Shown: piece after piece, positions 36,460 to 57,081 of the stretch
Position numbering within the stretch: the first letter of the stretch is position 1
Layout: every line of letters begins with the position of its first letter
Virus record (IMG/VR): IMGVR_UViG_3300042397_003635
DNA length: 64,000 nucleotides
DNA from: a virus
Taxonomy: Duplodnaviria; Caudoviricetes
Reading direction: 5' to 3' (one strand)
Position numbers and translations under genes: made by a program
The notes under the pieces: model-generated
What the model was told of the DNA's origin: nothing
Database searches by the model: none
Seen by the model: the letters and a program-made list of their open reading frames with translations, nothing else

Positions 36460-36544
36460 CGGAGGCGGTAGGATTCGAACCTACGGTACCTTGCGGTACA
36501 ACAGTTTTCAAGACTGCCGCGATCGACCACTCTGCCACACCTCC
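36460..36544 (-). tRNA. tRNA-Ser(UGA)
   Basis: Cloverleaf, long variable arm, CT-TGA-AA loop, GGTTCGAATCC. Confidence 0.95.
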
Positions 36545-36557
36545 AATTAAATATAAC

Positions 36558-36785
36558 TTACCTATTTACTATCATTTCATGCATTCGGTTAAGATCAGAG
36601 TTATCATATATTAGGATCTTTTCATCTCCAACTCGACCGACTGCCCTTAATCCGCAACCTTCACAAATAATTCCGTCTTGATAGTGTTCATCCATCAGAC
36701 TACCAAAAATTTGATCTGTGTCGATGTCTGGTGGAAACTCATCTCCCCACATTTCAGGGGCGCATTTGTCACAAAATTCTGCCAT
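36558..36785 (-). CDS. Small CxxC...CxxC protein
   Basis: FCDKC...ICEGCG. Confidence 0.7.
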   Translation of the reverse strand: MAEFCDKCAPEMWGDEFPPDIDTDQIFGSLMDEHYQDGIICEGCGLRAVGRVGDEKILIYDNSDLNRMHEMIVNR

Positions 36786-36889
36786 AGTTTAAAATTTACC
36801 CCATTGGGATTTATGTCTATTTTCTTCAGCTATCTTGAATCCAAGTAGAATCTCTTTAACAATAGCTTTAATTTTAGTTATTATATTTT

Positions 36890-37963
36890 TCATAATAGGT
36901 GTGGTTTGGCTTCTGTTTGACCAGCATTAGTTATTTGTACCCATTTTGGATGGAAAGTTGCAAGTGATTCTGCACCGGCATAGGATAGAGCAGATTTTAC
37001 TCCATCAATTAGGCCTTCTACAATAAATTTAACTCCACCTTTAAATGGAACAATAGTTGATTCGCCTTCAACATTACGTTGAGCTTGACCGTGAACGGTT
37101 TTAGTTTCTAATGAGGCTGCTCCTCTATACCGCTTATACAAACCAGTTGACTTTTCAACAATTTGACCTGGACTTTCTGAAGTTCCAGCTAGGAGAGAGC
37201 CTAACATTACTGTACTTGCGCCTAGTGCTAGGGCTTTTGCAATATCTCCACTAGTTTTAATTCCGCCATCTGCCATTACTGGAGTTTTTGCAACTGCAAC
37301 AATATCATTAACACAGGTTACGTTTGGAATTCCAAATCCAGTTTTAATTCGCGTTGTGCAAAGGGATCCTCCACCAATTCCAACCCGTAAACCATCTGCT
37401 CCCCATGATTCTAAATCTTGAGCTGCTTCTGCAGTTGCAATATTTCCTGCAATAATATCAACATGTTCGGGTAAATTTTCTTTACACCATTCAATCATGG
37501 CTTTTACATTTTTGTGATGCCCGTGTGCAACATCAATTAAGAGGATATTTGCACCAGCTTCCACTAGTGCTTTAGCTCTATCCATATCGCTTGCCATTAC
37601 TCCGATTGCTGCCATAATTGGAACCTGTTTAATTTCAGCGTGCCAATCATCATACATAATTCCCCAATCTTCGTATGGTCCACCAAATCCATCACCATAA
37701 ATTTTATGACTTAGTAGTTTAACCTGTTTAGCCTGCTCTTCAATTGGCATAAATCTGTGAATACAGCCGACTCCTCCTAAAAGAAACATTCTAAATGCCA
37801 TTTCCAATTCGCACACAGTGTCCATTGGCGACGCAACTAGAGGTCGCATTAAACCATAGCGGCGACTTACTAGAGTTTGTAAGTTAATGTTTTGACGACT
37901 TGAAACCTCTGAATAACCAGGTACAAGTTGAATATCGTCATATGTAAGGGCAATATTATTCAT
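36890..37963 (-). CDS. IMP dehydrogenase / GMP reductase family (no CBS subdomain)
   Basis: ASPMDTV, IDVAHGH, GIGGGSLCTTR, ADGGIKTSGD, YRG; probable start MNNI at 37963. Confidence 0.9.
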   Translation of the reverse strand: MNNIALTYDDIQLVPGYSEVSSRQNINLQTLVSRRYGLMRPLVASPMDTVCELEMAFRMFLLGGVGCIHRFMPIEEQAKQVKLLSHKIYGDGFGGPYEDWGIMYDDWHAEIKQVPIMAAIGVMASDMDRAKALVEAGANILLIDVAHGHHKNVKAMIEWCKENLPEHVDIIAGNIATAEAAQDLESWGADGLRVGIGGGSLCTTRIKTGFGIPNVTCVNDIVAVAKTPVMADGGIKTSGDIAKALALGASTVMLGSLLAGTSESPGQIVEKSTGLYKRYRGAASLETKTVHGQAQRNVEGESTIVPFKGGVKFIVEGLIDGVKSALSYAGAESLATFHPKWVQITNAGQTEAKPHLL

Positions 37964-38693
37964 TATCTGTAAATTTAATAAAGGTGATTTCATTTGTTTT
38001 AGGATCCCAGTCAAATGTTACTGGTTTATTAACATATTCGTAATATTCATTCAAGATTGATGCATTAAACCAGTGAGTATGTCCATCAAACTTGTAACCA
38101 AATCCTCCATGGATATGACCACACACATGAATTTTAGGTTTACGTTCAGCTGAGTCTATATGATTTCTCAATAGAGGACACCCTAAATTTGGTTCATTAT
38201 ATGGAGGCCCACTCGTATCTAAATGACCTTGAGCTGGACCATGTGTAACCAAAATATCAGTATCTGCTGGAATTGCTGCCCATTTAGCAGCTAACTCTTC
38301 TCCTTGACGAGGAAGATTAAATGCCCAGTGATGGAATTCTGGTTGCCATGGACTTCCATAGATTTTTGCAGTGTTTACATTTGGATCATGTGGATCCGCA
38401 TCTCCAACAATAAGCCAATCGTCTTGCAAATAATCAATCCACTTATAAGAGCGAACAATCTCCATTGATTTTTCTGGAAAATCTTCAAACATTCTGTCAT
38501 GATTTCCTGCAATAAACACCTTATGGTCGTATTGGTCTAACCCATCAAACCATTTACAAAAGCTCACAATGTCAACTGGATTTCTTCCAGAGTTCATGAT
38601 ATCTCCTGCATGGATTAATAGATCTCCACCTGGTAAATCATAAGTTACCGCATTGTGCTTTGTGTGCGTGTCGCTAATTAGTGTAATTCTCAT
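37956..38693 (-). CDS. Calcineurin-like metallophosphoesterase
   Basis: SDTH, HAGD, AGNHD, THGP, CGHIH. Confidence 0.9.
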   Translation of the reverse strand: MRITLISDTHTKHNAVTYDLPGGDLLIHAGDIMNSGRNPVDIVSFCKWFDGLDQYDHKVFIAGNHDRMFEDFPEKSMEIVRSYKWIDYLQDDWLIVGDADPHDPNVNTAKIYGSPWQPEFHHWAFNLPRQGEELAAKWAAIPADTDILVTHGPAQGHLDTSGPPYNEPNLGCPLLRNHIDSAERKPKIHVCGHIHGGFGYKFDGHTHWFNASILNEYYEYVNKPVTFDWDPKTNEITFIKFTDNE

Positions 38694-38737
38694 CGATTGA
38701 TTCTTTCTTATTTTTTACTTAATATTATTATACAAAA

Positions 38738-38762
38738 AAAGAGCAGTGTTTAGCTGCTCTTT
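38738..38762 (-). terminator. Intrinsic terminator
   Basis: aaagagcag / ctgctcttt stem plus T-tract. Confidence 0.7.
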
Positions 38763-38787
38763 CTTATATCTTCTATGTTTATTTAGG

Positions 38788-39345
38788 TTATCCCAATTCA
38801 TAAAATTTTTCAAGAGCTGCTTGTATTCTGTCCGAAATGGATGGATCAGCTTGTTCAGCAATATCTGCAAGAATTGCAATACCATTTACGACCTTTTCGT
38901 AACCTGGTAAATAGGTAACGTTTTTATCCTTTTTGTACATTCTTAATATATCAATTAGGGTATTTTCAATAAAACCTGCAATTGCTCCTGAATTAACGTT
39001 CATTGGGTCTTCTCCATCTGGAGAAATTATTTCAGCATATTGCCTAACTTCTTCTCCAATTTCTGCGATTTCTTCAGCATGAGATTTATTGTCATGGTAA
39101 ACATCTGCCTTTTTGGTTTTTGTAATAAGATCGATTGGAACTCTAACAATCTTTTTACTAGAATCTAGGAGTTCAATTTTTGCAAAATTTGCATCCATAT
39201 CAATAACTTGACCAGGTCCTCTGTAACTTGTTACATAGTCGCCAGGTTCGATTTCAGGATTTTCTTCATTTCTTTGAAACTCTGCATCTGGATCTTGCAT
39301 AAATCTATCAAGATCAAAGTCTTCGTATATCTTAATATATTTCAT
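38788..39345 (-). CDS. Putative internal head protein with SH3-like segment
   Basis: MKYIKIYEDF start; IEPGDYV...GQVI SH3-like. Confidence 0.7.
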   Translation of the reverse strand: MKYIKIYEDFDLDRFMQDPDAEFQRNEENPEIEPGDYVTSYRGPGQVIDMDANFAKIELLDSSKKIVRVPIDLITKTKKADVYHDNKSHAEEIAEIGEEVRQYAEIISPDGEDPMNVNSGAIAGFIENTLIDILRMYKKDKNVTYLPGYEKVVNGIAILADIAEQADPSISDRIQAALEKFYELG

Positions 39346-39745
39346 CGTACTTAATAACTAATTCTCCAAAAACTTCAATTTTTCCAACCAATTTTTGGAA
39401 AGCAGTTTGGTCAATTTTAACAGAACTTCTAGTTAAATAGAGCTCCTCAACTAATTGATTATACTCTTTAACTGCTGAATCGCGATCTGCTTTAGTCCAG
39501 CCCTTCATCGCCTTTTTGTAATATGGTAATTTAACAACAAAGTGGTGGTGAGTTAGCATAGCATTTCCGCCTCTTTCCTTTGCGCCTTCTGCTATTTTAG
39601 TAGCGCCCATTAGTCGAGATTCGCTAAACTCTTTAAATTTTTGGTCCAATGCTTCAGTTGAGTTAACTTTAGGTTTTTCTTCAGCCTTAGCTTCAAGTTT
39701 AGCCTCATTAATAAATTCGCTAAACGTGTTAATTTGGTTCTTCAT
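39332..39745 (-). CDS. Putative internal head protein
   Basis: MKNQINTFSEFINE start; GATAAATA at 39751-39758. Confidence 0.7.
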   Translation of the reverse strand: MKNQINTFSEFINEAKLEAKAEEKPKVNSTEALDQKFKEFSESRLMGATKIAEGAKERGGNAMLTHHHFVVKLPYYKKAMKGWTKADRDSAVKEYNQLVEELYLTRSSVKIDQTAFQKLVGKIEVFGELVIKYDEIY

Positions 39746-39795
39746 GTAGTTATTTATCTAAAACAAAAAAGGACTGAATTACTTCAGTCCAATTG

Positions 39796-39877
39796 TACCC
39801 CCTAAGAGACTCGAACTCTTACACCTTTCGGCACTAGATCCTAAGTCTAGCGTGTCTACCAATTCCACCAAAGGGGC
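39796..39877 (-). tRNA. tRNA-Leu(UAG)
   Basis: Cloverleaf with variable arm, CT-TAG-GA. Confidence 0.95.
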
Positions 39878-39882
39878 AGGAA

Positions 39883-40140
39883 TTATTTCTTATATTTTAT
39901 AATTTTAATTTGAATACTATCTCCCACTCTAACTGCGTTTCTGGATGTGTAGATTCGACCACAATCTAATTTAACTCTCCATTCTGGATCAGTTTGTAGT
40001 GTGTGTTTTTCTCCAACTTGAAAATACTCGACTTCAGTTGCAACGCAAGTTTGTTCTGTTACTTCACCAATTACTTCGCTTCCGCAACTCGTAATTAAGC
40101 CTGTAAAAATTAAACCAATTATAAAATATATCTTTTTCAT
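39883..40140 (-). CDS. Lipoprotein (OB-fold-like)
   Basis: MKKIYFIIGLIFTGLITS|C lipobox; track start 40167 overlaps tRNA-Arg, so start moved to 40140. Confidence 0.7.
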   Translation of the reverse strand: MKKIYFIIGLIFTGLITSCGSEVIGEVTEQTCVATEVEYFQVGEKHTLQTDPEWRVKLDCGRIYTSRNAVRVGDSIQIKIIKYKK

Positions 40141-40152
40141 ATCTAAATTTTG

Positions 40153-40227
40153 TGGTAGTCCCGCCAAGAATCGAACTTGGATCCACTGCTTAGAAGGCAG
40201 TTGTTCTATCCGTTGAACTACAGGACC
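40153..40227 (-). tRNA. tRNA-Arg(UCU)
   Basis: Cloverleaf, CT-TCT-AA, encoded CCA. Confidence 0.95.
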
Positions 40228-40233
40228 ATGCGT

Positions 40234-40422
40234 TTATTGATTTTTATTTAAGTCTCTCCATAGCTTGTCGCTATACAAATTAACTAAAATAAACAGTGTC
40301 CACCATCTAACATCAATGATATCCAACATGCTCTTATCAAATGCTGCAATTGCAAGAACCACCATGAGTAGTAAGTTAATTACAACTTGCATCCAAATTA
40401 AAAATTTACTTGTCTTTTCCAT
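40234..40422 (-). CDS. Small membrane protein
   Basis: Two hydrophobic stretches. Confidence 0.65.
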   Translation of the reverse strand: MEKTSKFLIWMQVVINLLLMVVLAIAAFDKSMLDIIDVRWWTLFILVNLYSDKLWRDLNKNQ

Positions 40423-40443
40423 AATTATATTATACCTAAAATT

Positions 40444-40520
40444 TGGTCGGGATGGCAGGATTCGAACCTACGGCCTCCTGCTCCCAAAGCAGGCGCGATA
40501 CCGGACTACGCTACATCCCG
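40444..40520 (-). tRNA. tRNA-Pro(UGG)
   Basis: Cloverleaf, TT-TGG-GA, encoded CCA. Confidence 0.95.
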
Positions 40521-40543
40521 AGTAGCTAAAACTATTTTACTAA

Positions 40544-40846
40544 TTAGCTATTAATTAGTGTATTCTCTTTTTGTGACTTTGAACCTGTCAATCCTAATTT
40601 TTTATCAAGTCTTGAATCAGTGTAGGATTTGCACTCTAATTCGACCCTTTTTATTTCTAATTCTAAATCGGTTCTCCATATCTGGAGATCTTGGTGGTAA
40701 TCTCGATTTGTTTGATCGAGACCTTGGTGCAGATTTTCAATCTGCTTTGCTTGTCTGTTAACCTTAAGCAAACCAATAACAACTACTACTGCAAATGCAA
40801 TAGCAACCATCGTTAGCATACCTAAAGCGAATGAAGTTAATTCCAT
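40544..40846 (-). CDS. Membrane-anchored coiled-coil protein
   Basis: N-terminal TM; YTDSRLDK C-terminus. Confidence 0.75.
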   Translation of the reverse strand: MELTSFALGMLTMVAIAFAVVVVIGLLKVNRQAKQIENLHQGLDQTNRDYHQDLQIWRTDLELEIKRVELECKSYTDSRLDKKLGLTGSKSQKENTLINS

Positions 40847-40907
40847 TGTTTTAAGATTATTTTGTGTCTTAGCTACAATGGTCTTATACTACAGAAAAAA
40901 GAATGGA

Positions 40908-41144
40908 TTAATCGAGATGAAAATAGATCTCAGCCAGTGGATAGAGTTTTTCACTGGGGCTTTTAACTGATACTTGCGGTCGATAAACTCTAGTGTTTGT
41001 TTTCCTGTGGTTTTTTGCCATCCAGATTGTTACAAACTCTTTTACAGTATCTTCTACCTCTTCACCTCTAGAATTTACCATAGTAAATCTCTTGCCGATA
41101 TAAGTATCGTCAATTGTAACAGGTGATTTTAGTAGTGTCGACAT
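40908..41144 (-). CDS. Hypothetical protein
   Basis: 78 aa ORF. Confidence 0.7.
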   Translation of the reverse strand: MSTLLKSPVTIDDTYIGKRFTMVNSRGEEVEDTVKEFVTIWMAKNHRKTNTRVYRPQVSVKSPSEKLYPLAEIYFHLD

Positions 41145-41230
41145 GGTAGCAGTTGTTAATTTTAGTTATTTAACAAAGCCGCCACAAAAAGTTTTTAAAA
41201 AATGAAATATTTTGTGAAAATAACATTAAA

Positions 41231-41695
41231 TTAATCTTGAAGTCGCCCTGCTCCTTTGTACGCAGCCTTATATCGAGGTTCCATTAGCGAACTTACTTTA
41301 ACGCCTTCTGCCCTATTTGCTGCATGAACAAACATAGTTTCTCCGATATAAGTTCCGCAGTGCCAACCCGATGGAGATTGACTGCTTCTAAAAAATACGA
41401 GGTCTCCTATTTCAAGGCTGTCCCTTTTAATTCGGATAGTTTGATTCCATTGTTTATAACAGACTCCTTCTAGTTTAACTTCATAAACATCTTGATATAG
41501 TCTTTTATTAAACTGTGAACAGTCGATTCCATATTCAGTCGAACCACCGAGTTTATAAGGTTTACCAATCCAGTGAATAATAAAACTATTAAGCGTAGAG
41601 TCTTTAGTGAAAGGGGGAACCTCTATTAAATCCTGGCCAAACCCTAATGACGATAGTGCAGTAAGAAATACTCCTACCACTAACAATTTTTTCAT
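41231..41695 (-). CDS. Secreted NlpC/P60 (C40) peptidase
   Basis: Signal peptide LGFG|Q; PYKLGG, GIDCS, GDLVFF, WHCG, HA. Confidence 0.9.
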   Translation of the reverse strand: MKKLLVVGVFLTALSSLGFGQDLIEVPPFTKDSTLNSFIIHWIGKPYKLGGSTEYGIDCSQFNKRLYQDVYEVKLEGVCYKQWNQTIRIKRDSLEIGDLVFFRSSQSPSGWHCGTYIGETMFVHAANRAEGVKVSSLMEPRYKAAYKGAGRLQD

Positions 41696-41712
41696 AATTT
41701 TAATTTTTAATG

Positions 41713-41946
41713 TTAATCTGGAAGATCCAGAGCAAGCGACCTCATAAAACCAGGGTCAGCTTTTATTTCACTAATTGCATCTAGCAACTCGGATTTAGGC
41801 ATGCCAAAAAGCGAGCATCGCTCCTTAATACAAGCCTCTTCTTTGGTGCCATAATTTTCCCAAACATCATAAAAATATCCTAATGCATGATCCCAACCAT
41901 AAACGATTGTAGTACCAGCTTCAGTTTTCTTGGTATATCTGCTCAT
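41713..41946 (-). CDS. Hypothetical protein
   Basis: 77 aa; YGWDH..GYF. Confidence 0.7.
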   Translation of the reverse strand: MSRYTKKTEAGTTIVYGWDHALGYFYDVWENYGTKEEACIKERCSLFGMPKSELLDAISEIKADPGFMRSLALDLPD

Positions 41947-42260
41947 TAGCCCTTTGGTTTAAGTATACTACTAAAAATTTGAGTAAGTCGATTCAGTCTC
42001 CACTCTCTCTTTTTTTCTTCGATTGTTTTAGGTTCTTCCCCTAAGTTTGAATAGACATTACTATTTGTACCATATTGATATCGAAATGCATCAAAATATA
42101 CTTGATGCAAATGAACCGGAATGGTATTAAAGTCTGCAATACATTCAATTGGTAAAGAGGTTCCGCTACCAGCAATAGAGATACTGCTTTTAATTGTAAC
42201 TTTACCTGAGCCTTTCGTGGTTAGGTGACCAGAATCTGTATTAATTGTTAGTGTGCTCAT
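41946..42260 (-). CDS. Hypothetical protein
   Basis: 104 aa ORF. Confidence 0.7.
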   Translation of the reverse strand: MSTLTINTDSGHLTTKGSGKVTIKSSISIAGSGTSLPIECIADFNTIPVHLHQVYFDAFRYQYGTNSNVYSNLGEEPKTIEEKKREWRLNRLTQIFSSILKPKG

Positions 42261-42462
42261 ATGCTTTTGCTTCGTGAAAATAATATCCTGAACTTACTTT
42301 ACCACCTATATCCCAATTCATTTCTGCTTCCCAATGGTAAACTTTATTTTTCTTATTAATTGAAGTAATAGTAACAAAAGTCAACCCATATTCTTCTTTA
42401 TCATAATCGATTGCCTCTAGTTTATCTCCAACTTTAAATATTGGTTCTATATTATTGCTCAT
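42241..42462 (-). CDS. SH3-like small protein
   Basis: FKVGDKL start. Confidence 0.65.
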   Translation of the reverse strand: MSNNIEPIFKVGDKLEAIDYDKEEYGLTFVTITSINKKNKVYHWEAEMNWDIGGKVSSGYYFHEAKAYEHTNN

Positions 42463-42730
42463 AATCTGATACTTTAAGACCCCATTGCATATCGACCCAG
42501 CTCATATCAATTTCAGCGAGCTTTCTGGTGCGATGCCTATTATTTTTAAGTAGAACTTCAACTCCCCATTCAATCCATTGGGAGCGCTGTTCCATTGTCA
42601 TAGTCCAATCCCAAAACCAATTGTCCTTGCGATCAACCACATCTTCATACTTAACATCATGACCTGCAATCTCAAACATTTTGTCGATAAGGATCTTGGC
42701 CATTTCTTCTGGACTCTTCTTCTTTGCCAT
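42452..42730 (-). CDS. Hypothetical Trp-rich protein
   Basis: 92 aa ORF. Confidence 0.7.
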   Translation of the reverse strand: MAKKKSPEEMAKILIDKMFEIAGHDVKYEDVVDRKDNWFWDWTMTMEQRSQWIEWGVEVLLKNNRHRTRKLAEIDMSWVDMQWGLKVSDYEQ

Positions 42731-42731
42731 T

Positions 42732-42995: not shown

Positions 42996-42998
42996 TTC

Positions 42999-43686: not shown

Positions 43687-43998
43687 CTAAAATTTTTCTG
43701 GCTTTTGCCAAGGTTTATTGTATTTTTCTTCCCAATATTTTCTATACTCTCGCACATTAATCATGTTAATTGTATATTGCCAATATTCAGTCTCATACCA
43801 AATAGTTACATGTAGCACTAAGCTAGATGGTGGAACATAATTCTCTTTAGCCCATTTGAATAACTGCTTAGTATTTCCCTTTTGTCTAATTTTTTTTGCA
43901 AACGTTGGAAAATCACAATCCCAAATAGTAGGATATGGGGTCAGTATACCTGAATACCCCAATCCCCTATATCCTATATTGTATGCTACTTGTTTCAT
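43687..43998 (-). CDS. Hypothetical protein
   Basis: 103 aa ORF. Confidence 0.7.
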   Translation of the reverse strand: MKQVAYNIGYRGLGYSGILTPYPTIWDCDFPTFAKKIRQKGNTKQLFKWAKENYVPPSSLVLHVTIWYETEYWQYTINMINVREYRKYWEEKYNKPWQKPEKF

Positions 43999-45125
43999 TA
44001 GTGACTATCGCCAACTTCCCAATTTTCTGCATAGATTAAGTAATCTGGATTAATTACTTTTGCAACTTTGCTTCTATCTCCAGTATGGTGTTTTACAACA
44101 ACTCCTTCATGAGGTACTTTAGTTCCAAAGATAAAATTATCAAAGACATACATATCTTCAATTTCTTTATTCCAATCTCCTACATAAAGTACATCAACAT
44201 AAGGTAGGTCCATTTCAATTCCAACAAAATTAAAGGCCTCGTCAGTTGAACAGTATTTGCCATTGATTTCCAAGTCAAATCCTGCAAATTCAATTTCTTT
44301 TAGACCATAGTCATAATTCTTTTGAATACCTGCTCCATAGATTTCTCCATATAGAACAACGCCAATTCCAATACCATCTGGGAATCTTTCGGGATCCTTG
44401 ACAAACTTCCATAAAACCTGTTTAAGATTATACTTTGCCGCAATATCATACCAGACATTAGTGTCGTAGAAGCCCTGAGAGTCTGATCCTTTTTCTACAT
44501 TATGCGAACCTACTACGAATTCGTAATCGACCCACTTTGCACCAAAGAATTTCTTTACCTTATCGAATAGAGATAATTTGTTTTTCTTTACAATACCATA
44601 TCGAGCATTGGTTCCATGGATCTTACGAGTGATCTCAACCCAATCATCTTCAGTAAAAATTCCTGGTACATTCTTTGCATTTGGAAATTTGTAATAGATA
44701 TGGAAGTTTGGATTTTCTGAGTATCTGATCTTTTTACCAGAACTCAATTGAACTTGCTTAACCGGTGGTTCATATTTCCAAATATCCATTGCATACATCA
44801 TGTCCTTACCTTCATAGTAATTTTCCATGAATGGAACATGTTTAATTGGAATGATTAGACACTCTGAATATACTCCACGTAATTTTACAGTACGAACTCT
44901 ACCGCCTTTACGTAAATAATTTGTAACATTTAGGCTGTCAGACAACTCGACTGGAATTACTGCATCAGTTGTTGCAACTACTACAAGATCCCCATTCGAG
45001 TATTGTCCCTTTTGGATAATTGCTTGCCATCCACTGACTAATGCCAATTCAATAGCATCTGCTCCTGGAATAGGTACGATTTCACCAATACTTGCTACAA
45101 AGCAAACTGAATTATTATTTTCCAT
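43998..45125 (-). CDS. RNA ligase, Rnl2/DRB0094 family
   Basis: N-terminal OB-like domain (IPGADAIE, KLRG), KIHGTN, VLYGE, FD, HEGVV, AKVIN. Confidence 0.88.
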   Translation of the reverse strand: MENNNSVCFVASIGEIVPIPGADAIELALVSGWQAIIQKGQYSNGDLVVVATTDAVIPVELSDSLNVTNYLRKGGRVRTVKLRGVYSECLIIPIKHVPFMENYYEGKDMMYAMDIWKYEPPVKQVQLSSGKKIRYSENPNFHIYYKFPNAKNVPGIFTEDDWVEITRKIHGTNARYGIVKKNKLSLFDKVKKFFGAKWVDYEFVVGSHNVEKGSDSQGFYDTNVWYDIAAKYNLKQVLWKFVKDPERFPDGIGIGVVLYGEIYGAGIQKNYDYGLKEIEFAGFDLEINGKYCSTDEAFNFVGIEMDLPYVDVLYVGDWNKEIEDMYVFDNFIFGTKVPHEGVVVKHHTGDRSKVAKVINPDYLIYAENWEVGDSH

Positions 45126-45127
45126 TT

Positions 45128-45541
45128 TTATAATTTTATTTCAAAACGATTTTTCATTTGTTCTAACTTATCATCAGGCACACCATGTATATTTACACCA
45201 CCATGTCGATTTTCTACAATTAGGGAAGTAACTCGATAGTTCCACTGTTTAGCTAAATCAAAGTATGCCTCCATTTCCCACTCTTGTGTAAAGGTATTAG
45301 ATACAATAATTGTACTATTATGTCCAGTAGTATGGTTTAGGAGCATCGCCTGTTCAACACTATCTTTGCACCACCTATGAGCATCTTTAATTTTAGCTGG
45401 ATCAAATTTATAAACCCCATCCTCAATAAAATATTGATCTGCTTCAAAGTGAGCGCATCCACTTGCGTTTGCTCCTAATAGGTTTGCAGTTGTACTTTTA
45501 CCTGAACCTGGGATTCCTCTTACTAAAATTAAATTTTTCAT
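45128..45541 (-). CDS. P-loop kinase (AAA_33 / polynucleotide kinase-like)
   Basis: RGIPGSGKST, EAD.YF, VSNTF, HGVP. Confidence 0.85.
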   Translation of the reverse strand: MKNLILVRGIPGSGKSTTANLLGANASGCAHFEADQYFIEDGVYKFDPAKIKDAHRWCKDSVEQAMLLNHTTGHNSTIIVSNTFTQEWEMEAYFDLAKQWNYRVTSLIVENRHGGVNIHGVPDDKLEQMKNRFEIKL

Positions 45542-46257: not shown

Positions 46258-46276
46258 ATAAATTATTAAAAGTTAG

Positions 46277-46350
46277 TGGTCCATACAGGACTCGAACCTG
46301 TGACCTTCTCGTTATGAGCGAGCTGCTCTAACCAACTGAGCTAAAGGACC
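46277..46350 (-). tRNA. tRNA with CAU anticodon, probably Ile2 (lysidine)
   Basis: Cloverleaf, CT-CAT-AA; GGTCCTTTAGCTCAG 5' end resembles bacterial tRNA-Ile2; Ile2 versus Met is inferred. Confidence 0.85.
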
Positions 46351-50486: not shown

Positions 50487-50575
50487 TGGTACCGACGGCC
50501 GGAGTCGAACCGGCACGGGCATTACGGCCCAAGAGATTTTAAGTCTCTCATGTCTACCTATTTCATCACGTCGGC
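50487..50575 (-). tRNA. tRNA-Leu(UAA)
   Basis: Cloverleaf with variable arm, CT-TAA-AA, encoded CCA. Confidence 0.95.
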
Positions 50576-50656
50576 ATTTAACTAAGTTATTATACTAAGT
50601 TTATTAACTGGGTTATCAGTCGAAGATAAATATTTATAGAAATAACTCAATTATTA

Positions 50657-51568
50657 ATGGGAAATCACATTAAAAATTTTAAAGGTTGGAAGAACGTTTC
50701 AGAAGCTGGTTCTTGGGGAGAGTGGATGCAATCATTAGTTACTGGCGTAGGAGCAGAGACTCCAGAATTAGGAGCAGATGCAAAGGCTGCATTAACCGGC
50801 GTAAAGACATTAGCTGGTACTGTTGTAGATAAAATTGCAGATACACTAGGAATAGAAACTGACAAAAAGGAAGAACCAAAATCTTCTAAAGCTTTTAAAT
50901 CAAATAGCGGAAAAATTCCAGAAGAACACATTGCCGCATTAGAAGCAGCCATGGATAGACATGGAATTACAAATGAATTTGCAAGAAAGGCTATTCTTGG
51001 AGTAGTATCAAAGGAATCTCCAGATCTAAGACCTGAAGTTGACTATAGTAAAACTTCCAACTCTAGAATTAGAGAAGTATTTGGATCAAGAGTTTCAGAA
51101 TTATCAGATTCTCAACTTGATGCATTAAAAGCTAATCCAACTAAGTTTTGGGATAGAGTATATGGACCAACCGATCCAACTGGAAGAGGCTCAAAATATG
51201 GGAATTCTGAACCGGGCGATGGCGAAAGATATAGGGGTCGCGGATTTAATGGAATTACATTTAAAAGTAATTATATCAATCTTCAAAAAGTATACAATGA
51301 AATTGGTAAACTCGAAACTAATGATACAATCGATATAGTTGATAATCCAGAACAGTTGGAAGATCCAGCGATTGCAGCAGAATTTGCAATTCTTTATTAT
51401 ATCGATAGTTTTAAACGAGCAAATAAAAACCTAAATAACTTTAGTGATTTAGAATCTGCCGTAACTGATTATGTTAGATCAACTGCGGGTTGGGGTTCAG
51501 ATATTACAAGCGGAGTTAAGGCTCAGGGTTTTGCTAGAGCTCTAGACTATGCACAATCATTAGCATAA
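50657..51568 (+). CDS. GH19/lysozyme-like muralytic enzyme with internal-protein-like N-terminus
   Basis: KES catalytic Glu, YRGRGFNGITF...NY; MGNHIKNFKGW start; GATAAATA at 50625-50632. Confidence 0.75.
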   Translation: MGNHIKNFKGWKNVSEAGSWGEWMQSLVTGVGAETPELGADAKAALTGVKTLAGTVVDKIADTLGIETDKKEEPKSSKAFKSNSGKIPEEHIAALEAAMDRHGITNEFARKAILGVVSKESPDLRPEVDYSKTSNSRIREVFGSRVSELSDSQLDALKANPTKFWDRVYGPTDPTGRGSKYGNSEPGDGERYRGRGFNGITFKSNYINLQKVYNEIGKLETNDTIDIVDNPEQLEDPAIAAEFAILYYIDSFKRANKNLNNFSDLESAVTDYVRSTAGWGSDITSGVKAQGFARALDYAQSLA

Positions 51569-51569
51569 T

Positions 51570-51746
51570 ATGAAGATTAGAGATATTAAACCCCAAGATA
51601 AAGATATGGTCGACGGAATAGTCGATATTATAAAACAAGTAAGGGACAAAGATAATCGAGAAGAGATTGCAACCAATATGGTTAAGCAATTAAAGCGAGA
51701 AAAGATTATCTTAAACTACGAAGACTTTTTAAAAGCCTGTAAATAA
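51570..51746 (+). CDS. 58 aa hypothetical protein missed by track
   Basis: MKIRDIKPQDKDMVDGIVDIIKQV...LKACK, 1 nt after previous stop. Confidence 0.7.
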   Translation: MKIRDIKPQDKDMVDGIVDIIKQVRDKDNREEIATNMVKQLKREKIILNYEDFLKACK

Positions 51747-51748
51747 CA

Positions 51749-51771
51749 AAAGCCTCATTAAGCGGCTTTTT
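51749..51771. terminator. Bidirectional terminator between convergent units
   Basis: aaaagcc / ggctttt. Confidence 0.6.
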
Positions 51772-51777
51772 CTTTTT

Positions 51778-51852
<75 letters not shown>

Positions 51853-51889
51853 CTATAATATTTTCAAGATGTGATTGTTGGAAAGTAAA

Positions 51890-52745
51890 AAAGAAAAACG
51901 CTGAGATTATACGTTTTAACGTTAGATCTTTACATAGGATTATTGTTTCCCTACTTATCCAGAGACTTTTGATCTCTACTCTAACAGTGCCGGTTTTTTA
52001 GGTGTACCACTCCTTGAGCTGCGGGTTTGAACTACTCTCCTCATATTATATCTACCAGAACCTGCCGATCCCGTTAACCCTTGCGAGGCTATAGATTTTT
52101 CTGAGAACTCGTATTGGACTTGCGATCCTTTACGGCAACTGACAACCAGTTACTAGGTAGGCACCTTTCGTTCGCAGCTGACGAGCGCTTAAGCTTTGTT
52201 TTAAAATGGATTTTAGTTATTCACCAAAAGAACTTTTTATTTCCAAAGTTTATTGACTCTGTGGATTGTGAAAGTAGTGGCTCGTCACTAGGCCAGCCCC
52301 GATTTTGTCAGGGTCGATACTTAACTACTCTCTGAGATATCCCTACCTCAATTTTTCCGGATTCCTCTTAACTGCAGTCTTGGTAGACTGATGATAAGGT
52401 TAATAACAGCACCACCTGTACATCAACTTGTCTTTCGACTTTAAGGCTCCCATTAAATTGGAGTTCGCAATCATGGAGTCGGATGATTCCACTCCTTGCA
52501 AATATCCTACGAGTTAATCTTATTGAGGTTCCCCTCTCAACTAAACGACCCACATCGCCTAGTCAGCATTCCAGTTCTCCTACAGTGTTACCCTCAGATA
52601 CTTAGGACTTCTGATATCCCGCTTGCCTACTCGAGTTCCTTGCGAAACCGCAGAGCTGATAAGTCATATAGCTCCACTTTATACCTGTTTCCAGGTTTAT
52701 TTGACGATCATAGGCGACCGTTTTGCAACCTAGCAAGCTAGGCTA
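51890..52745 (-). ncRNA. Large structured ncRNA (~850 nt), GOLLD-like
   Basis: No credible ORF; many GNRA-capped hairpins and long-range helices; promoter boxes at 52785-52796; adjacent to tRNA. Confidence 0.7.
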
Positions 52746-53038
52746 CATATATCAATAAGATTCAAAGAACTTGTTTGTGTTACTTATTTATTATACCTAC
52801 TTTATTTGATTTTGGTTTAAATAAGTAAAAAAAAATTAAGGGTTTGAAAAGAGATCCGAAAAAATTTTCGCTAAAAGAGTGTTAAATGTTGATAGGTGCC
52901 ATTTTTGAATTTCTTAAATCTTGAATTTTAAATTCAGAGTCCCTGTCTTAACATCAATTGGATTGCTAGAATAAGTATGTAAATGACGTGCAGTCATATG
53001 CTACCGATTCCTCTTCACTCTTTTCTCTCCCCTATATT

Positions 53039-53467
53039 TTAAATTTTGGTTTTTGCATTGTGAGCTTCTAGCTCCTCTTGCAACATCTCGATTTGAGACT
53101 CCAATTTTTCAATCAATTGATCTTTTTCAACGATTGAGATTTGTGAAGTGTACTTCACTGGAGAATCCATTCGATATGATTGGTGCATTCCTTCTTTGCA
53201 GTCTAAACCTTTCAATTTAGAAACCAAAGATTTTAGTTCAGCTAATCTAAAGATTTTATCATAAACCTTTGCATTAGCTTTGTGAATAGCTGTTTTTAAT
53301 GCAACTAATTCATCAACCGATGTCATTGCTTTTTCCAACGCTTCCTTTGCATCATAAGGACGTGTAGTTCCTTCTTGAATAGAGTTGTACGCTGAAACAT
53401 GCGAAATGTACTCATTAGTTTTTGAAACTAATTTGTTTTTCTGTTTAAGTGCTTTTGTGATATTCAT
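53039..53467 (-). CDS. Coiled-coil protein (DIP1984/DUF6847-like)
   Basis: MNITKALKQKNKL...LKTAIHKAN...QEELEAHN pattern. Confidence 0.6.
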   Translation of the reverse strand: MNITKALKQKNKLVSKTNEYISHVSAYNSIQEGTTRPYDAKEALEKAMTSVDELVALKTAIHKANAKVYDKIFRLAELKSLVSKLKGLDCKEGMHQSYRMDSPVKYTSQISIVEKDQLIEKLESQIEMLQEELEAHNAKTKI

Positions 53468-53522
53468 GTTTTATTGTATTACTTAGTTAATAATAGTTTT
53501 TAATATACCTAAAAAATTTTTG

Positions 53523-53594
53523 AGCGGATGGAGAGAATCGAACTCTCATCTCCAGTTTGGAAGACTGGAGTAATGGCCATTATACGACATCCGC
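53523..53594 (-). tRNA. tRNA-Gly(UCC)
   Basis: Cloverleaf, CT-TCC-AA. Confidence 0.95.
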
Positions 53595-53709
53595 AAATTG
53601 CTGTCTTTCCAAGCTGTCAACCAGTGCACGTTCCAAACCCTTGTTTGGATGACTGCTTCTATTACTAGAATGCTTTATTTGCAAGTCGTCGTTGTGTTGG
53701 ATTTCTGCG

Positions 53710-53815
53710 TAGTCATAATTGGATTCGAACCAATTACAGGCTTTACCATAAAGAGTGCCATTAGCAGTTAATCTCAACCTTGGGGAGGTGCCCTTCAACC
53801 AATGAATTTATGACT
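53710..53815 (-). ncRNA. tRNA-like RNA with expanded anticodon domain
   Basis: 7 bp acceptor stem, canonical T arm (TTCGAAT), D-like arm; ~47 nt in place of an anticodon loop. Confidence 0.65.
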
Positions 53816-53820
53816 ATTTG

Positions 53821-53894
53821 CGGTCCGTACGGGACTCGAACCCGTGATCTCCTACGTGACAGGCAGGCGTCCACTCCAACTGGACCGACAGACC
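53821..53894 (-). tRNA. tRNA-Asp(GUC)
   Basis: Cloverleaf, CT-GTC-AC. Confidence 0.95.
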
Positions 53895-53997
53895 ATTTAG
53901 ATATTTCAGAAGAGGTTACTAAACTTCAGCTCTTCAAAGCTTCTCAGCTTACAGCGTTCCGTCAATTGTTTACGCTGCTAACTTATTCGGTAAAGCG

Positions 53998-54069
53998 TAG
54001 CCCGTACGAGAATCGAACTCGTCTCTCACCCGTGAAAGGGGCGTGTCCTAACCGATAGACTAACGGGCC
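53998..54069 (-). tRNA. tRNA-Glu(UUC)
   Basis: Cloverleaf, CT-TTC-AC. Confidence 0.95.
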
Positions 54070-54263
54070 AAGGACAAATCTTGCATGCTCACCATGCTTG
54101 TGGATTTGATTGAACATAGTTTACTGTTCACCTGTTTTGAGTGCACCAAAGAGCAGGGTCCATCACATAATACCTTGGGTCATGTATACTTCATTGGGTA
54201 GCTACTCCCACGAAGCCAAGGTCTCTTTCAACGGTGCTAATCCGTCTTATGTAAGATTTGTAG

Positions 54264-54337
54264 TGGAGATGACAGGAATCGAACCTGCGACCCTCTGCGT
54301 GCAAGGCAGATGCTCTAGCCAACTGAGCTACATCCCC
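54264..54337 (-). tRNA. tRNA-Ala(UGC)
   Basis: Cloverleaf, G3:U70, CT-TGC-AC. Confidence 0.95.
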
Positions 54338-54382
54338 GTTTACTGTAATTATTATACTATAAACAAGCTAATAATTGCATTG

Positions 54383-54455
54383 AGCCTCCTGTCGGAATCG
54401 AACCAACGACCTACTGATTACAAATCAGTTGCTCTACCAGCTGAGCTAAGGAGGC
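54383..54455 (-). tRNA. tRNA-Thr(UGU)
   Basis: Cloverleaf, TT-TGT-AA. Confidence 0.95.
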
Positions 54456-54574
54456 AAATAGATGAAGTATGACGTCTACTTAATTTACAGCAACCTTCTG
54501 ATAAATTAAGGGTTCTCTTCATCATTGTGGACATAGACTCATCGTCTACTCTTGGGCTTCCACTAGCCCCTTTG

Positions 54575-54645
54575 TTGTCCCGCAAGGATTCGAACCTCGA
54601 TTATCTGGACCAAAACCAGATGTGCTGCCGTTACACCACAGGACA
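54575..54645 (-). tRNA. tRNA-Gln(UUG)
   Basis: Cloverleaf, TT-TTG-GT. Confidence 0.93.
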
Positions 54646-54677
54646 GTATACTTTCCAATACGTCAAAGACCAATTTG

Positions 54678-54759
54678 TGCCTGCAGATGGACTCGAACCA
54701 CCGAACCCGTAAGGGAGCTGATTTACAGTCAGCCGCAATTGCCGCTATGCGATACAGGC
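54678..54759 (-). tRNA. tRNA-Tyr(GUA)
   Basis: Cloverleaf with variable arm, CT-GTA-AA. Confidence 0.95.
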
Positions 54760-54765
54760 ATTATT

Positions 54766-55437
54766 CTATTTTCTAGGCTTTTTAGAAATTACCTCATCGA
54801 TAATTCCATATGCCTTTGCTTCTTCAGCACTAAGCCAAAAGTCTCTAGTTGCATCTGCTTTAACTTGTTCTGGATCTTTATCACAATATCCACCAAGTAA
54901 AACAAATAGCTCGTCATTTACTTTTTGCCACTCTTTCCAATCAATTTCAGCATCTTGGATATTTCCACTGAAACCTCCTGAAGATTGATGCAACATTGTA
55001 GTTGAGTGTTTTAGTGAGCTCCGCTTTCCTTTTGTGCCAGCTCCTAACAACACTGATCCCATTGATGCAGCCATTCCAGTATTAACTGTTCTGATATCAC
55101 AGTTAATATAATCCATTACATCAACCATTGATAAGCCGCTCTTAACACTTCCACCTGGACTATCAATATGCATAGTAATATCTAATCCATCAACTGAATC
55201 CAAAAACATTAGCTGAGCTTGCACAATAGTCGACATATGATCGTTGACTGGACCTGCTACCCAAATTAGTCTTTCCATCATTAATCTGGAAAAAATATCC
55301 ATTTGAGTTGCACGTAATTCGCGCTCTTCTAAAATATAAGGAGTCATTGACGACTCAATCTGCTTTTGATGGTAGTGCATATTCAATGAAGAAATGCCAT
55401 GCTTACTCATCGCGTATTTTTCAAATTCGTTTCTCAT
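54766..55437 (-). CDS. clpP: ATP-dependent Clp protease proteolytic subunit
   Basis: DIFSRL, IDSPGG, AASMG (Ser), MLHQ (His), RDFW (Asp). Confidence 0.96.
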   Translation of the reverse strand: MRNEFEKYAMSKHGISSLNMHYHQKQIESSMTPYILEERELRATQMDIFSRLMMERLIWVAGPVNDHMSTIVQAQLMFLDSVDGLDITMHIDSPGGSVKSGLSMVDVMDYINCDIRTVNTGMAASMGSVLLGAGTKGKRSSLKHSTTMLHQSSGGFSGNIQDAEIDWKEWQKVNDELFVLLGGYCDKDPEQVKADATRDFWLSAEEAKAYGIIDEVISKKPRK

Positions 55438-55468
55438 ACAATTATTATACTAATTTAGTTATACTATG

Positions 55469-55543
55469 TGCTTTCTACAGGGTTCGAACCTGTGACCTCC
55501 TCGGTGTAAACGAGGCGCTCTGAACCAGCTGAGCTAAGAAAGC
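55469..55543 (-). tRNA. tRNA-Val(UAC)
   Basis: Cloverleaf, TT-TAC-AC. Confidence 0.95.
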
Positions 55544-55632
55544 ATATATACGTCTTTCCGTATTGTCATCAATTTTGATGGGCTCATCTGACAGTCTTTA
55601 AACTAACCAGCACTTGAGATTGAAACTCCTTG

Positions 55633-55706
55633 TGATCCCGAATGGACTCGAACCATTGACTCCCTCATTAAAAGTGAGGTGCTCTAACCAACTGAGCTAC
55701 GAGATC
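55633..55706 (-). tRNA. tRNA-Lys(UUU)
   Basis: Cloverleaf, CT-TTT-AA. Confidence 0.95.
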
Positions 55707-55711
55707 ATTTG

Positions 55712-55786
55712 TTGCGGGACTGGGACTCGAACCCAGAACTTCAGCTTATGAGACTGACGAGATAGCCACTTTCTACGCATCCCGCA
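55712..55786 (-). tRNA. tRNA-Met(CAU), probably elongator
   Basis: Paired 1:72, CT-CAT-AA, slightly atypical D arm. Confidence 0.85.
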
Positions 55787-55790
55787 ATAT

Positions 55791-55865
55791 TGGCGTCCCA
55801 GGAAGGATTCGAACCTACGACCTAGCGGTTAACAGCCGCTTGCTCTACCACTGAGCTACTGAGAC
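55791..55865 (-). tRNA. tRNA-Asn(GUU)
   Basis: Cloverleaf, CT-GTT-AA, encoded CCA. Confidence 0.95.
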
Positions 55866-55868
55866 TTT

Positions 55869-55942
55869 TGGCACGCCTGAAAGGATTCGAACCTCTAACA
55901 GCGGTTTTGGAGACCGACATGATACCATTTCACCACAGACGT
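55869..55942 (-). tRNA. tRNA-Trp(CCA)
   Basis: Cloverleaf, CT-CCA-AA, encoded CCA. Confidence 0.93.
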
Positions 55943-55950
55943 GTATGTTG

Positions 55951-56020
55951 AGTACAAGGTTGGAATCGAACCAACACCAATAGTTTTGCAGACCATCCGA
56001 CCACCACGATCATCCTGTAC
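55951..56020 (-). tRNA. tRNA-Cys(GCA)
   Basis: Cloverleaf, CT-GCA-AA, U73. Confidence 0.9.
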
Positions 56021-56027
56021 TTATATG

Positions 56028-56099
56028 TAGTCAATAAAGGACTCGAACCCTTACCTCTTGATCCGTAGTCAAGTGTTCTATCCATTGAACTAATCGACT
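56028..56099 (-). tRNA. tRNA-Arg(ACG)
   Basis: Cloverleaf, CT-ACG-GA. Confidence 0.93.
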
Positions 56100-56196
56100 A
56101 AAACTATGTGTCTCTCCACATCTGTCATACTTCCCTTGTATTCTGTTCTGGCGAATAGCCGTTCCTAACGGTAAAGCAGTATCAAAAACCAGTATG

Positions 56197-56270
56197 TCGA
56201 ACTGGATGGACTCGAACCATCGACCACTCGCGTATCAGGCGAGTGCTCTAACCAACTGAGCTACAGTTCG
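56197..56270 (-). tRNA. tRNA-Ile(GAU)
   Basis: Cloverleaf, CT-GAT-AC. Confidence 0.95.
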
Positions 56271-56282
56271 ATTGAATTAGAG

Positions 56283-56306
56283 CAAATATAAAACAAATAT
56301 TTGACA
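56283..56306 (-). promoter_or_regulatory. Bacteroidota-type promoter (TATATTTG = TAnnTTTG) with upstream TGTCAAA
   Basis: TGTCAAA-N9-TATATTTG ending 12 nt before tRNA-Ile; same layout at 57319-57342. Confidence 0.6.
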
Positions 56307-56317
56307 CTAAAAAATTT

Positions 56318-56746
56318 TTAATCAACTTTTTTCCAATCTTTTTCTTCTCCTAATCTGATAGGAACAAAGAGGGCGAATCCATTATCATCTTCAAAATGAT
56401 TGCAGGTATCAATATAAGTGTTACCGAACTTATATCTCCAATATTCAAATTCCTGCTTCTCAGCATTCCATTTAGCTGTTGTGGCATTACGAGTGTCGCC
56501 AATATAAACTTGACCATGGATCAGGTCGAGTTTTGGAATCGCTCCTCTTTGTATAAGTTTTGGAACATAAAAGTTTTTATATTCTTCGGGCTCTGCTCTA
56601 GGAATAGTTGGAACTTCATGTGGCTCCTTAAATGGAGTAGTTTCAGTTTCCCAATATTCCCTAATACGCTTAGCCCTTTCTGCTCTTTCATGCTCAAGTT
56701 GCTTTTGTATCTTGAGTTTCATAAACTCTTTGTCTATATTTTCCAT
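56318..56746 (-). CDS. Hypothetical protein inside tRNA array
   Basis: 142 aa; G..R...A.W, FE...GFALFVP. Confidence 0.8.
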   Translation of the reverse strand: MENIDKEFMKLKIQKQLEHERAERAKRIREYWETETTPFKEPHEVPTIPRAEPEEYKNFYVPKLIQRGAIPKLDLIHGQVYIGDTRNATTAKWNAEKQEFEYWRYKFGNTYIDTCNHFEDDNGFALFVPIRLGEEKDWKKVD

Positions 56747-56769
56747 AATAACAATTTACTAATTTTAAG

Positions 56770-56854
56770 CGGAAGCTGAAGGATTCGAACCTTCGGGACC
56801 GTTAAGTCCACAGCTTTAGCAAAGCTGCACAATAGACCACTCTGACAAACTTCC
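56770..56854 (-). tRNA. tRNA-Ser(GCU)
   Basis: Cloverleaf with variable arm, TT-GCT-AA. Confidence 0.93.
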
Positions 56855-56855
56855 T

Positions 56856-56932
56856 TGGGGTAATTAATGGGATTCGAACCCATACTAGCAGAACCACAAT
56901 CTGACGTGCTAACCATTAACACTATAACTACC
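56856..56932 (-). tRNA. tRNA-His(GUG)
   Basis: G-1:C73, TT-GTG-GT, encoded CCA. Confidence 0.95.
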
Positions 56933-57008
56933 ATAAAACCCCACTTCACCAGCTTAACGGACTGGCTGCCATATGGGAGTGGGGGTACCCCGTTAATTCG
57001 GGACTCCG

Positions 57009-57081
57009 TGGACAGGGGCGGGATCGAACCGCCGACACCAGGATTTTCAGTCCTGTGCTCTACCTACTGAGCTACCTGTCC
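57009..57081 (-). tRNA. tRNA-Phe(GAA)
   Basis: Cloverleaf, CT-GAA-AA. Confidence 0.95.

Follow-up and report, generated by a model that had tools for sequence, protein, structure and literature searches.

One tRNA per codon family: 25 tRNA genes of a tailed phage match the theoretical minimum decoding set

A 64,000-nucleotide stretch of the virus record IMGVR_UViG_3300042397_003635 of IMG/VR (Duplodnaviria; Caudoviricetes), which was analysed as a whole and is called the window below, carries 25 genuine tRNA genes that are maintained by selection as a set in which every codon family has a single tRNA. Their list is the same as the 25-species minimum, 24 elongators and an initiator, that was worked out experimentally for plastids (Alkatib et al., 2012, PMC3499367), and in principle it reads 60 of the 61 sense codons, CGG being the exception. 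What is such a set good for in a cell that already has tRNAs of its own? Most likely, with a probability that we put at about one half, it allows the phage to go on making protein when host tRNAs become scarce or damaged, and RNA-repair enzymes encoded nearby would form a second line.

tRNA genes were called on the whole window with ARAGORN at default settings and with the Rfam model RF00005 at its gathering score of 29 bits. ARAGORN finds 24 genes, every one on the minus strand and together spanning 36459-57081, and Rfam finds the same 24 plus a 25th match at 55712-55786 (CAU, 42.8 bits). The RF00005 threshold is passed by all 25, with scores ranging from 34.6 to 73.6 bits, and neither program finds a tRNA in the remaining 43 kb of the window. 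The anticodons are UGC, ACG, UCU, GUU, GUC, GCA, UUG, UUC, UCC, GUG, GAU, UAA, UAG, UUU, GAA, UGG, UGA, GCU, UGU, CCA, GUA, UAC and three times CAU, which is the sole anticodon present more than once. An earlier reading of the bare letters (hereafter the sequence-only reading) had listed one gene per anticodon except for three CAU, and the two programs match that list exactly; redundant tRNAs appear neither in the rest of the window nor elsewhere in the nearest contigs, of 114 and 118 kb.

The tRNA genes are co-oriented with the genes around them. Eighteen make up a main block that starts with tRNA-Phe behind a leader open reading frame (ORF) and a hairpin, the initiator follows a GOLLD RNA, and the others are scattered among genes of RNA-repair type. 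Read along the minus strand, with Rfam scores in brackets for genes that ARAGORN calls as well, the order is tRNA-Phe(GAA) (57008-57081; 73.6 bits), tRNA-His(GUG) (56856-56932; ARAGORN), tRNA-Ser(GCU) (56769-56854; 46.8 bits), tRNA-Ile(GAU) (56196-56270; 73.4 bits), tRNA-Arg(ACG) (56027-56099; 65.3 bits), which needs editing of A34 to I by host TadA, and tRNA-Cys(GCA) (55950-56020; 34.6 bits), which has a short D loop and the lowest score of all and keeps its position in relatives. Then come tRNA-Trp(CCA) (55869-55942; 59.3 bits), tRNA-Asn(GUU) (55791-55865; 70.8 bits), the CAU gene found by Rfam only (55712-55787; 42.8 bits), tRNA-Lys(UUU) (55632-55706; 71.8 bits), tRNA-Val(UAC) (55468-55543; 69.7 bits), tRNA-Tyr(GUA) (54677-54759; 51.6 bits), tRNA-Gln(UUG) (54574-54645; 60.2 bits), tRNA-Thr(UGU) (54382-54455; 71.8 bits), tRNA-Ala(UGC) (54263-54337; 72 bits), tRNA-Glu(UUC) (53997-54069; 57.5 bits), tRNA-Asp(GUC) (53820-53894; 53.5 bits) and tRNA-Gly(UCC) (53522-53594; 64.9 bits). 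Further along lie the initiator tRNA with anticodon CAU (51778-51852; ARAGORN), tRNA-Leu(UAA) (50487-50575; 54.6 bits), another CAU gene (46276-46350; 68.1 bits), tRNA-Pro(UGG) (40444-40520; 69.2 bits), tRNA-Arg(UCU) (40153-40227; 67.4 bits), tRNA-Leu(UAG) (39795-39877; 54.6 bits) and tRNA-Ser(UGA) (36459-36544; 53.2 bits). CCA is encoded in seven of them (Arg-UCU, Pro, Leu-UAA, the initiator, Asn, Trp and His) and is absent from the other 18.

Are these real genes under selection, or only passengers that still fold? The 18 main-block genes were compared with those of three close IMG/VR relatives, whose ClpP proteins are 97-99% identical to that of the window. The tRNA genes have diverged by 4.6%, 5.2% and 12.8%, the spacers between them by 23.6%, 34.2% and 42.6%, and the divergence of the tRNAs resembles that of the two ORFs inside the block. 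When the set is compared with that of G005, a complete relative (270 kb, 100% complete), 91 stem pairs are altered on both sides with pairing retained. tRNA-Tyr, tRNA-Leu and tRNA-Ser have the long variable arms of class II in the bacterial style, and tRNA-His carries an encoded G-1 (position 56932) opposite C73.

Each codon family is served once. A U34 tRNA stands alone for each of Ala, Gly, Pro, Thr, Val, Leu-CUN and Ser-UCN, ACG stands alone for Arg-CGN, and the two-codon sets Phe, Leu-UUR, Tyr, His, Gln, Asn, Lys, Asp, Glu, Cys, Ser-AGY and Arg-AGR have one tRNA apiece; outside those families are Ile-GAU, Trp-CCA and the three CAU tRNAs. A random draw of 25 distinct species from the 36-45 of a bacterial repertoire would yield this full-coverage subset with a probability of 1/6e8 to 1/3e12, and therefore the composition is not due to chance. 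In the minimal sets of plastids and mycoplasmas (PMC3499367), too, four-codon families have a U34 tRNA alone and CGN has ACG alone, Ile has the anticodons GAU and CAU, and tRNA-Met comes in an initiator and an elongator form. In those systems, however, the tRNAs are the only ones of their compartment and superwobble, the reading of a whole four-codon box by one U34 tRNA, has been demonstrated, whereas the phage set coexists with a full host pool, and its U34 tRNAs would read by superwobble if position 34 is left unmodified or is suitably modified in the host.

How much of the phage coding capacity depends on each kind of reading? Codons were counted in 93 ORFs of the window (18,869 codons). 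The sole codon without a reader, CGG, is also the rarest sense codon, with 14 occurrences among the 18,869, and the statement of the sequence-only reading that decoding is complete with only CGG in doubt holds on paper. Ordinary two-codon sets account for 58.1% of the codons; 15.9% would be read as U34:A, 2.2% as U34:G, 15.3% as U34:U and 3.9% as U34:C, and the rest concerns I34 (1.5%), AUA (1.1%) and AUG (1.9%).

The three CAU tRNAs belong to three families, each of which is kept across the clade. Family A (51778-51852) has three G:C pairs beside the anticodon loop (G29-31:C39-41), A11:U24 and a U1.U72 mismatch, and the mismatch at 1:72 is retained in relatives by differing bases (U.U, C.A or C.U); by these hallmarks it is clearly an initiator, tRNA-fMet. 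Family B (46276-46350), a canonical elongator, agrees with E. coli ileX in C4:G69 and C5:G68, which are TilS determinants in E. coli. Among its full-length matches in the E. coli collection the best carry the annotation tRNA-Ile, and its nearest CAU tRNA in the proxy host described below is the ileX-like one. In family C (55712-55787) U1 and A72 pair, and G2:C71 and C3:G70 are the same as in the initiator; the D region, of 20 nt, is non-canonical and ARAGORN rejects the gene. Relatives keep this tRNA with compensatory changes in the T stem, and blastn gives no match for it in E. coli genomes. Compared with E. coli ileX and metT, the non-initiator CAU tRNAs give near ties (59 vs 60 identities). 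Because such margins are small, we only infer that family B is tRNA-Ile2 and family C, by elimination, the elongator tRNA-Met. Of the former naming of the three as fMet, Met and probable Ile2, the first thus stands on initiator hallmarks, and the division between the other two leans on acceptor-stem pairs and narrow similarity margins.

Is there a 26th tRNA? With relaxed settings ARAGORN proposes a tRNA-Thr(GGU) with a 39-nt insert at 53710-53815 on the minus strand; in relatives the anticodon becomes GGC and the stem shifts, and the call was rejected. The element has a 7-base-pair acceptor stem, a T arm and a D-like arm, about 55 nt take the place of the anticodon arm, and the acceptor and T stems co-vary among relatives through compensatory changes. 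Two members of this family with the same acceptor stem occur in G005 (174304-174424 and 229675-229765), both of which Rfam calls 'tRNA'. The members share the acceptor stem (AGUCAGG/AGUCAUA type), an A discriminator and the T arm, while their cores are variable and unlike tRNA. Since this element is a conserved tRNA-like RNA and not a decoder, the non-redundancy of the set is unbroken. The copy in the window contains an invariant CACCUCCCCAAGGUUGAG stretch, which partly resembles the 3′ end of 16S rRNA.

What phage carries this set? The nearest records, G002 (114 kb; the same as G001) and G003 (118 kb), are each estimated to be about 45% complete and encode ClpP 99% identical to that of the window. 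In both, a stretch of about 20 kb contains the identical 25 tRNAs in unchanged order, and the remaining 95 kb or so is free of tRNA genes. Real tRNA genes are also confined to about 22-27 kb in G005 and in G004 (253 kb, 94% complete), the lone distant Rfam match of G005, at 229.7 kb, being one of the tRNA-like elements. Megablast of the window segment 50-58 kb against phage records returned only short tRNA matches. Genes of the window include a T4-type portal, a UvsW-like helicase, a fragment of a family B DNA polymerase and a thymidylate synthase. A ClpP gene (54766-55437, minus strand) lies inside the tRNA block, and a ClpB/ClpC-like double AAA+ ATPase (23939-25930, minus strand) lies 29 kb from it. 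By portal and ClpP the nearest named phages are the 'huge phages' (Al-Shayeb et al.) and the Lak phages of Prevotella, at 31-63% identity, and the best explanation is that the carrier, an uncultured phage from a lake, is a jumbo phage of about 250-270 kb with a T4-type portal, distantly akin to both groups. Related ClpP genes occur on more than 600 IMG/VR contigs, the best 80 of which are 78-99% identical. Genes on large contigs from freshwater Chitinophagaceae encode relatives of the phage GMP reductase with 62-68% identity, and because of this likeness the host is probably a freshwater Bacteroidota of the Chitinophagaceae. Apart from these genes, the window also encodes an AdoMet-decarboxylase-like protein (34015-34398, minus strand) and a protein with a TnsA-like endonuclease domain (16946-17458, plus strand). 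Two odd genes were seen in relatives. At 8354-8426 of relative L023 there is a tRNA with anticodon UCA, called selenocysteine by ARAGORN, which may be a UGA suppressor or a reader of UGA as Trp and hints at recoding of a stop codon in part of the clade; at 81503-81592 of G006 there is a tRNA-like gene with a four-base anticodon (UUGA), to which ARAGORN gives no isotype.

The tRNA genes stand in an RNA-repair setting. An RNA ligase of Rnl5 type with an N-terminal OB domain and a ligase domain (43998-45125, minus strand; PF21189 and PF09414; phrog_968) matches the Naegleria RNA ligase 5cot with E=8.6e-16. It is adjoined by a P-loop kinase (45128-45541, minus strand; AAA_33 by Pfam), which from its position is a candidate polynucleotide 5′-kinase. 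A protein with a cREC (cyclic-phosphate processing receiver) domain (57461-57913, minus strand; PF20274, E=1.5e-21) is encoded just upstream of the main tRNA block, and a calcineurin-like metallophosphoesterase (37956-38693, minus strand; Pfam and PHROG) among the scattered tRNA genes. The kinase, the cREC protein and the metallophosphoesterase are candidates for end healing at the level of domains only, and searches against solved structures with the kinase and the cREC protein gave nothing useful. Farther away are a second ligase domain, in a 964-amino-acid protein (5546-8440), and a non-specific DNA/RNA endonuclease (27610-28275, minus strand). Such combinations have precedents: jumbo phages combine tRNAs with ATP-dependent RNA ligases, cREC proteins and kinases, which has been read as a counter to host attack on tRNAs (Iyer et al., 2021, PMC7824862). 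The window shares with those sets the RNA ligase plus P-loop kinase, cREC and phosphoesterase among tRNA genes, and with them and with the T4 system (Pnkp and Rnl1 against PrrC) the pairing of an ATP-dependent RNA ligase with a kinase. Unlike in T4, the ligase resembles Rnl5/NgrRnl, with an N-terminal OB domain, and is not an Rnl1, the kinase is a separate protein of 137 amino acids, and both have candidate activities.

Maturation is another matter. TilS (PF01171) was not found in five related records. Among the related records a CCA-adding-type domain turned up in G005 and G006 alone, the window having been checked for it just in the ORFs scanned. Because TilS is missing from all five relatives and a CCA-adding-type enzyme occurs in two only, the tRNA set relies on host enzymes throughout.

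Upstream of tRNA-Phe, the minus strand carries a leader region (57116-57285) that was read from the sequence and is kept in close relatives. It consists of a 32-codon ORF (57285-57187) and then a hairpin with a run of T (about 57150-57116), 45 nt before tRNA-Phe; more distant relatives have a hairpin at the same place. In this window the leader peptide contains 18 different amino acids, exactly those of the downstream main-block tRNAs. The leader peptide of the three closest relatives, whose array is the same, contains Leu too, and the exact mirror between leader and array is therefore not conserved. The stretch between the hairpin and tRNA-Phe contains GTTCTTTGACA.

Structured RNAs other than tRNAs are interleaved with the array. 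Directly upstream of the initiator gene lies a GOLLD RNA (51898-52745, minus strand), whose 3′ domain matches Rfam at 51898-52332 with 242.6 bits and whose 5′ part is putative. A freshwater-1 RNA motif (54105-54167, minus strand; 72.4 bits, just over the threshold) is found in the spacer 54075-54260 between tRNA-Ala and tRNA-Glu. Contigs from four freshwater metatranscriptome libraries cover the GOLLD region (51838-52730), where word depths reach hundreds to thousands and greatly exceed those of the flanking genes, and one RNA-library contig (54107-54246) matches the freshwater-1 motif with zero mismatches at a depth of about 100. Contigs of low depth cover parts of the tRNA block; one piece (56702-57201) joins Ser-GCU, His, Phe and the upstream hairpin, and another joins Asn to Ile and derives from a strain without one spacer. 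Many tRNA-sized pieces and joints in these libraries probably come from other organisms or strains, and uncovered parts of the array and differences of depth between tRNAs carry no weight. The contigs are compatible with polycistronic tRNA precursors, but as support for transcription they are weak because carry-over of DNA is possible.

How would such a set work in the infected cell? The tRNAs would be transcribed as precursors and excised by host RNase P and RNase Z, 18 of them would receive CCA by addition, and host synthetases would charge all. Host enzymes would also modify them, namely TilS the Ile2 candidate, TadA tRNA-Arg(ACG), and the U34 enzymes. The benefit would be insurance: translation would go on when host tRNAs fall short or get cut, either by host anticodon nucleases or in the course of phage-induced shut-off and nucleic-acid breakdown, and the adjoining ligase, kinase and phosphoesterases could mend cut tRNAs. 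Compensation for tRNA destruction is a plausible cause of such an arrangement. Indeed, phage tRNAs are known to rescue infection from tRNA-cutting defences (PMC11555353; PMC10802454; PMC10264068): the tRNA-Tyr of T5 and SP15 counters retron Eco7 PtuAB and PrrC (PMC11555353), the tRNA-Lys of T5 counters PARIS (PMC10802454), and tRNAs of mycobacteriophages have anticodon-loop variants that evade nucleases (PMC10264068). Like those tRNAs, the present set would supply copies of the species that defences deplete, since it includes Lys-UUU, Tyr-GUA, Asn, Thr and fMet. In contrast to the mycobacteriophage variants, its anticodon loops are in nearly all cases the same as in a proxy host.

The proxy host is G008, a Chitinophagaceae genome of 3.4 Mb, which may not be the true host. 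It has about 35% guanine plus cytosine (GC), as the phage does, and 41 Rfam tRNA matches; these matches include precisely the kinds that are missing from the phage, namely Ala-GGC, Gly-GCC, Thr-GGU, Pro-GGG, Ser-GGA, Leu-GAG, Leu-CAA, Lys-CUU, Gln-CUG, Arg-CCG and Arg-CCU. On its contig C6, at 646.3-649.0 kb (locus L117), extra tRNA genes (Lys, Asn, His, Phe and others) form a compact cluster; they are diverged from the other copies of that genome, and the cluster may be a mobile or prophage tRNA array.

Several observations weigh against the array as insurance for the loss of host tRNAs. Nuclease-evading changes in the anticodon loops, which the sequence-only reading had proposed to look for, are not seen: the loops are those of G008 for nearly all shared anticodons and differ only in Gln, Val and His, as far as a proxy can tell in place of the true host. 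Fuller relatives have gaps or surpluses. G004 has 24 tRNAs, lacks Val and Ser-GCU and has an extra Gly-GCC; G005 has 26, again lacks Ser-GCU, has Leu-UAG twice and the extra Gly-GCC; and G006 (234 kb) has 29 with several duplicates. Because of the gaps, full self-sufficiency is not a requirement of the clade; near-complete sets dominated by U34 are typical of it, and only the sublineage of the window has the set in its exactly complete, non-redundant form. Moreover, U34 would have to read a pyrimidine in 19% of phage codons, and reading of U or C by U34 is possible but less efficient (PMC3499367). Completeness hinges on the atypical family C being functional, which is its weakest link. Charging and modification depend on the host entirely (synthetases, TilS, TadA, and CCA addition for 18 of the 25). 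Some codons, namely CUA, CCA, GGA and UCA, are individually richer in the phage than in G008, as codon matching predicts. What then remains of the proposal of the sequence-only reading that the set replaces the host pool, in compensation for tRNA destruction rather than as codon tuning? Coverage on paper, the repair genes and the lack of a tuning signal (p=0.17, below) speak for it, and the unchanged loops, the incomplete relatives, the share of U34:U/C reading and the dependence on host enzymes speak against it. As the set depends on host synthetases, TilS, TadA and CCA addition, 'replace' is better read as 'back up'.

Could the phage simply want more tRNA? The array might boost supply for a very large, AT-rich proteome late in infection, or match its codons, with no loss of host tRNAs at all, the U34 species being kept as A-ending codons are common. 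Third codon positions in the window ORFs are A or T in 76% of cases, the phage uses the four codons named above and also CGA more often than the proxy does, and clustered phage tRNAs match about half of the most-used codons (Morgado and Vicente, PMC6409571). Yet the phage, relative to G008, shows no significant enrichment of the Watson-Crick cognate codons of its tRNAs (mean log2 +0.17 vs -0.09, one-sided Mann-Whitney p=0.17), which leaves codon tuning unsupported overall, and phage and candidate hosts share a GC range of 31-42%. In Thr, Val and Leu-CUN, ACU, GUU and CUU outnumber ACA, GUA and CUA, and yet the U34 tRNA alone is kept with no G34 partner; keeping U34 alone where U-ending codons dominate agrees with selection for breadth rather than for a match with the commonest codon. 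tRNAs for single-codon Met and Trp and for rare Cys are in the set as well. We consider this account the less likely one, though one to be taken seriously.

Another possibility is insurance of host range, by which a full set would make the phage indifferent to differences of tRNA repertoire among the Bacteroidota that it meets. The more than 600 contigs with related ClpP come from many lake, river, estuary and marine samples, RNA libraries with matches come from 20 studies, and for the jumbo phage XacN1 the large tRNA complement has been connected with a wide host range (PMC5852040). But the tRNAs would still need the synthetases and modification enzymes of each host, and free-living bacteria all have full tRNA sets, so that their repertoires differ in abundance only; this makes the idea rather improbable. 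More doubtful still is a deliberate replacement of the pool, in which the lineage would wipe out cellular tRNAs, or let the host do so, and run late translation on its own 25; stalled ribosomes would switch these on through the translated leader and the hairpin, and the ligase, kinase and cREC protein of the phage would service them. That the genes serve mainly non-decoding ends, as punctuation for RNase P and RNase Z in a stable-RNA island, as nuclease decoys or as GOLLD cargo, is very improbable: GOLLD, the freshwater-1 motif RNA and the conserved tRNA-like RNA are interleaved with them, and GOLLD cages have been proposed to hold linked tRNAs (bioRxiv 10.1101/2024.12.08.627333), but neither punctuation nor decoys predict one tRNA per codon family, intact anticodons, the G-1 of tRNA-His or the initiator hallmarks.

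Large phage arrays are not new. All 20 isotypes were covered in 8 of 228 surveyed phage tRNA clusters (Morgado and Vicente, 2019, PMC6409571), XacN1 has 56 tRNAs (PMC5852040), and huge phages have up to 67 (PMC7162821). The clusters with all 20 isotypes resemble the present one in belonging to a large tailed phage, in having co-oriented tRNA genes with small ORFs, and in sequences distinct from host tRNAs. Unlike them, the set of the window covers exactly the full codon families without redundancy, whereas large known sets usually contain duplicates and G34 or C34 isoacceptors. Our limited literature searches found no paper on an exactly minimal, non-redundant ('minimal' or 'superwobble') phage tRNA set. 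Arrays for all 20 amino acids have been published already, as has the tRNA-destruction hypothesis, and the set of the window is an unusually tidy array of this known kind.

Why phages carry tRNAs at all is an old question, and codon matching, supply late in infection and counter-defence are all live answers to it. For choosing among them this lineage is a sharp natural test case, with the exact theoretical minimum, no spare genes, an RNA-repair setting, and close relatives that lack one or two members of the set. The 25 sequences are, besides, a candidate minimal tRNA set for cell-free translation or for translation in reduced genomes. And if the deliberate replacement of the host pool should be true after all, the array would be a natural, portable minimal decoder for the standard code.

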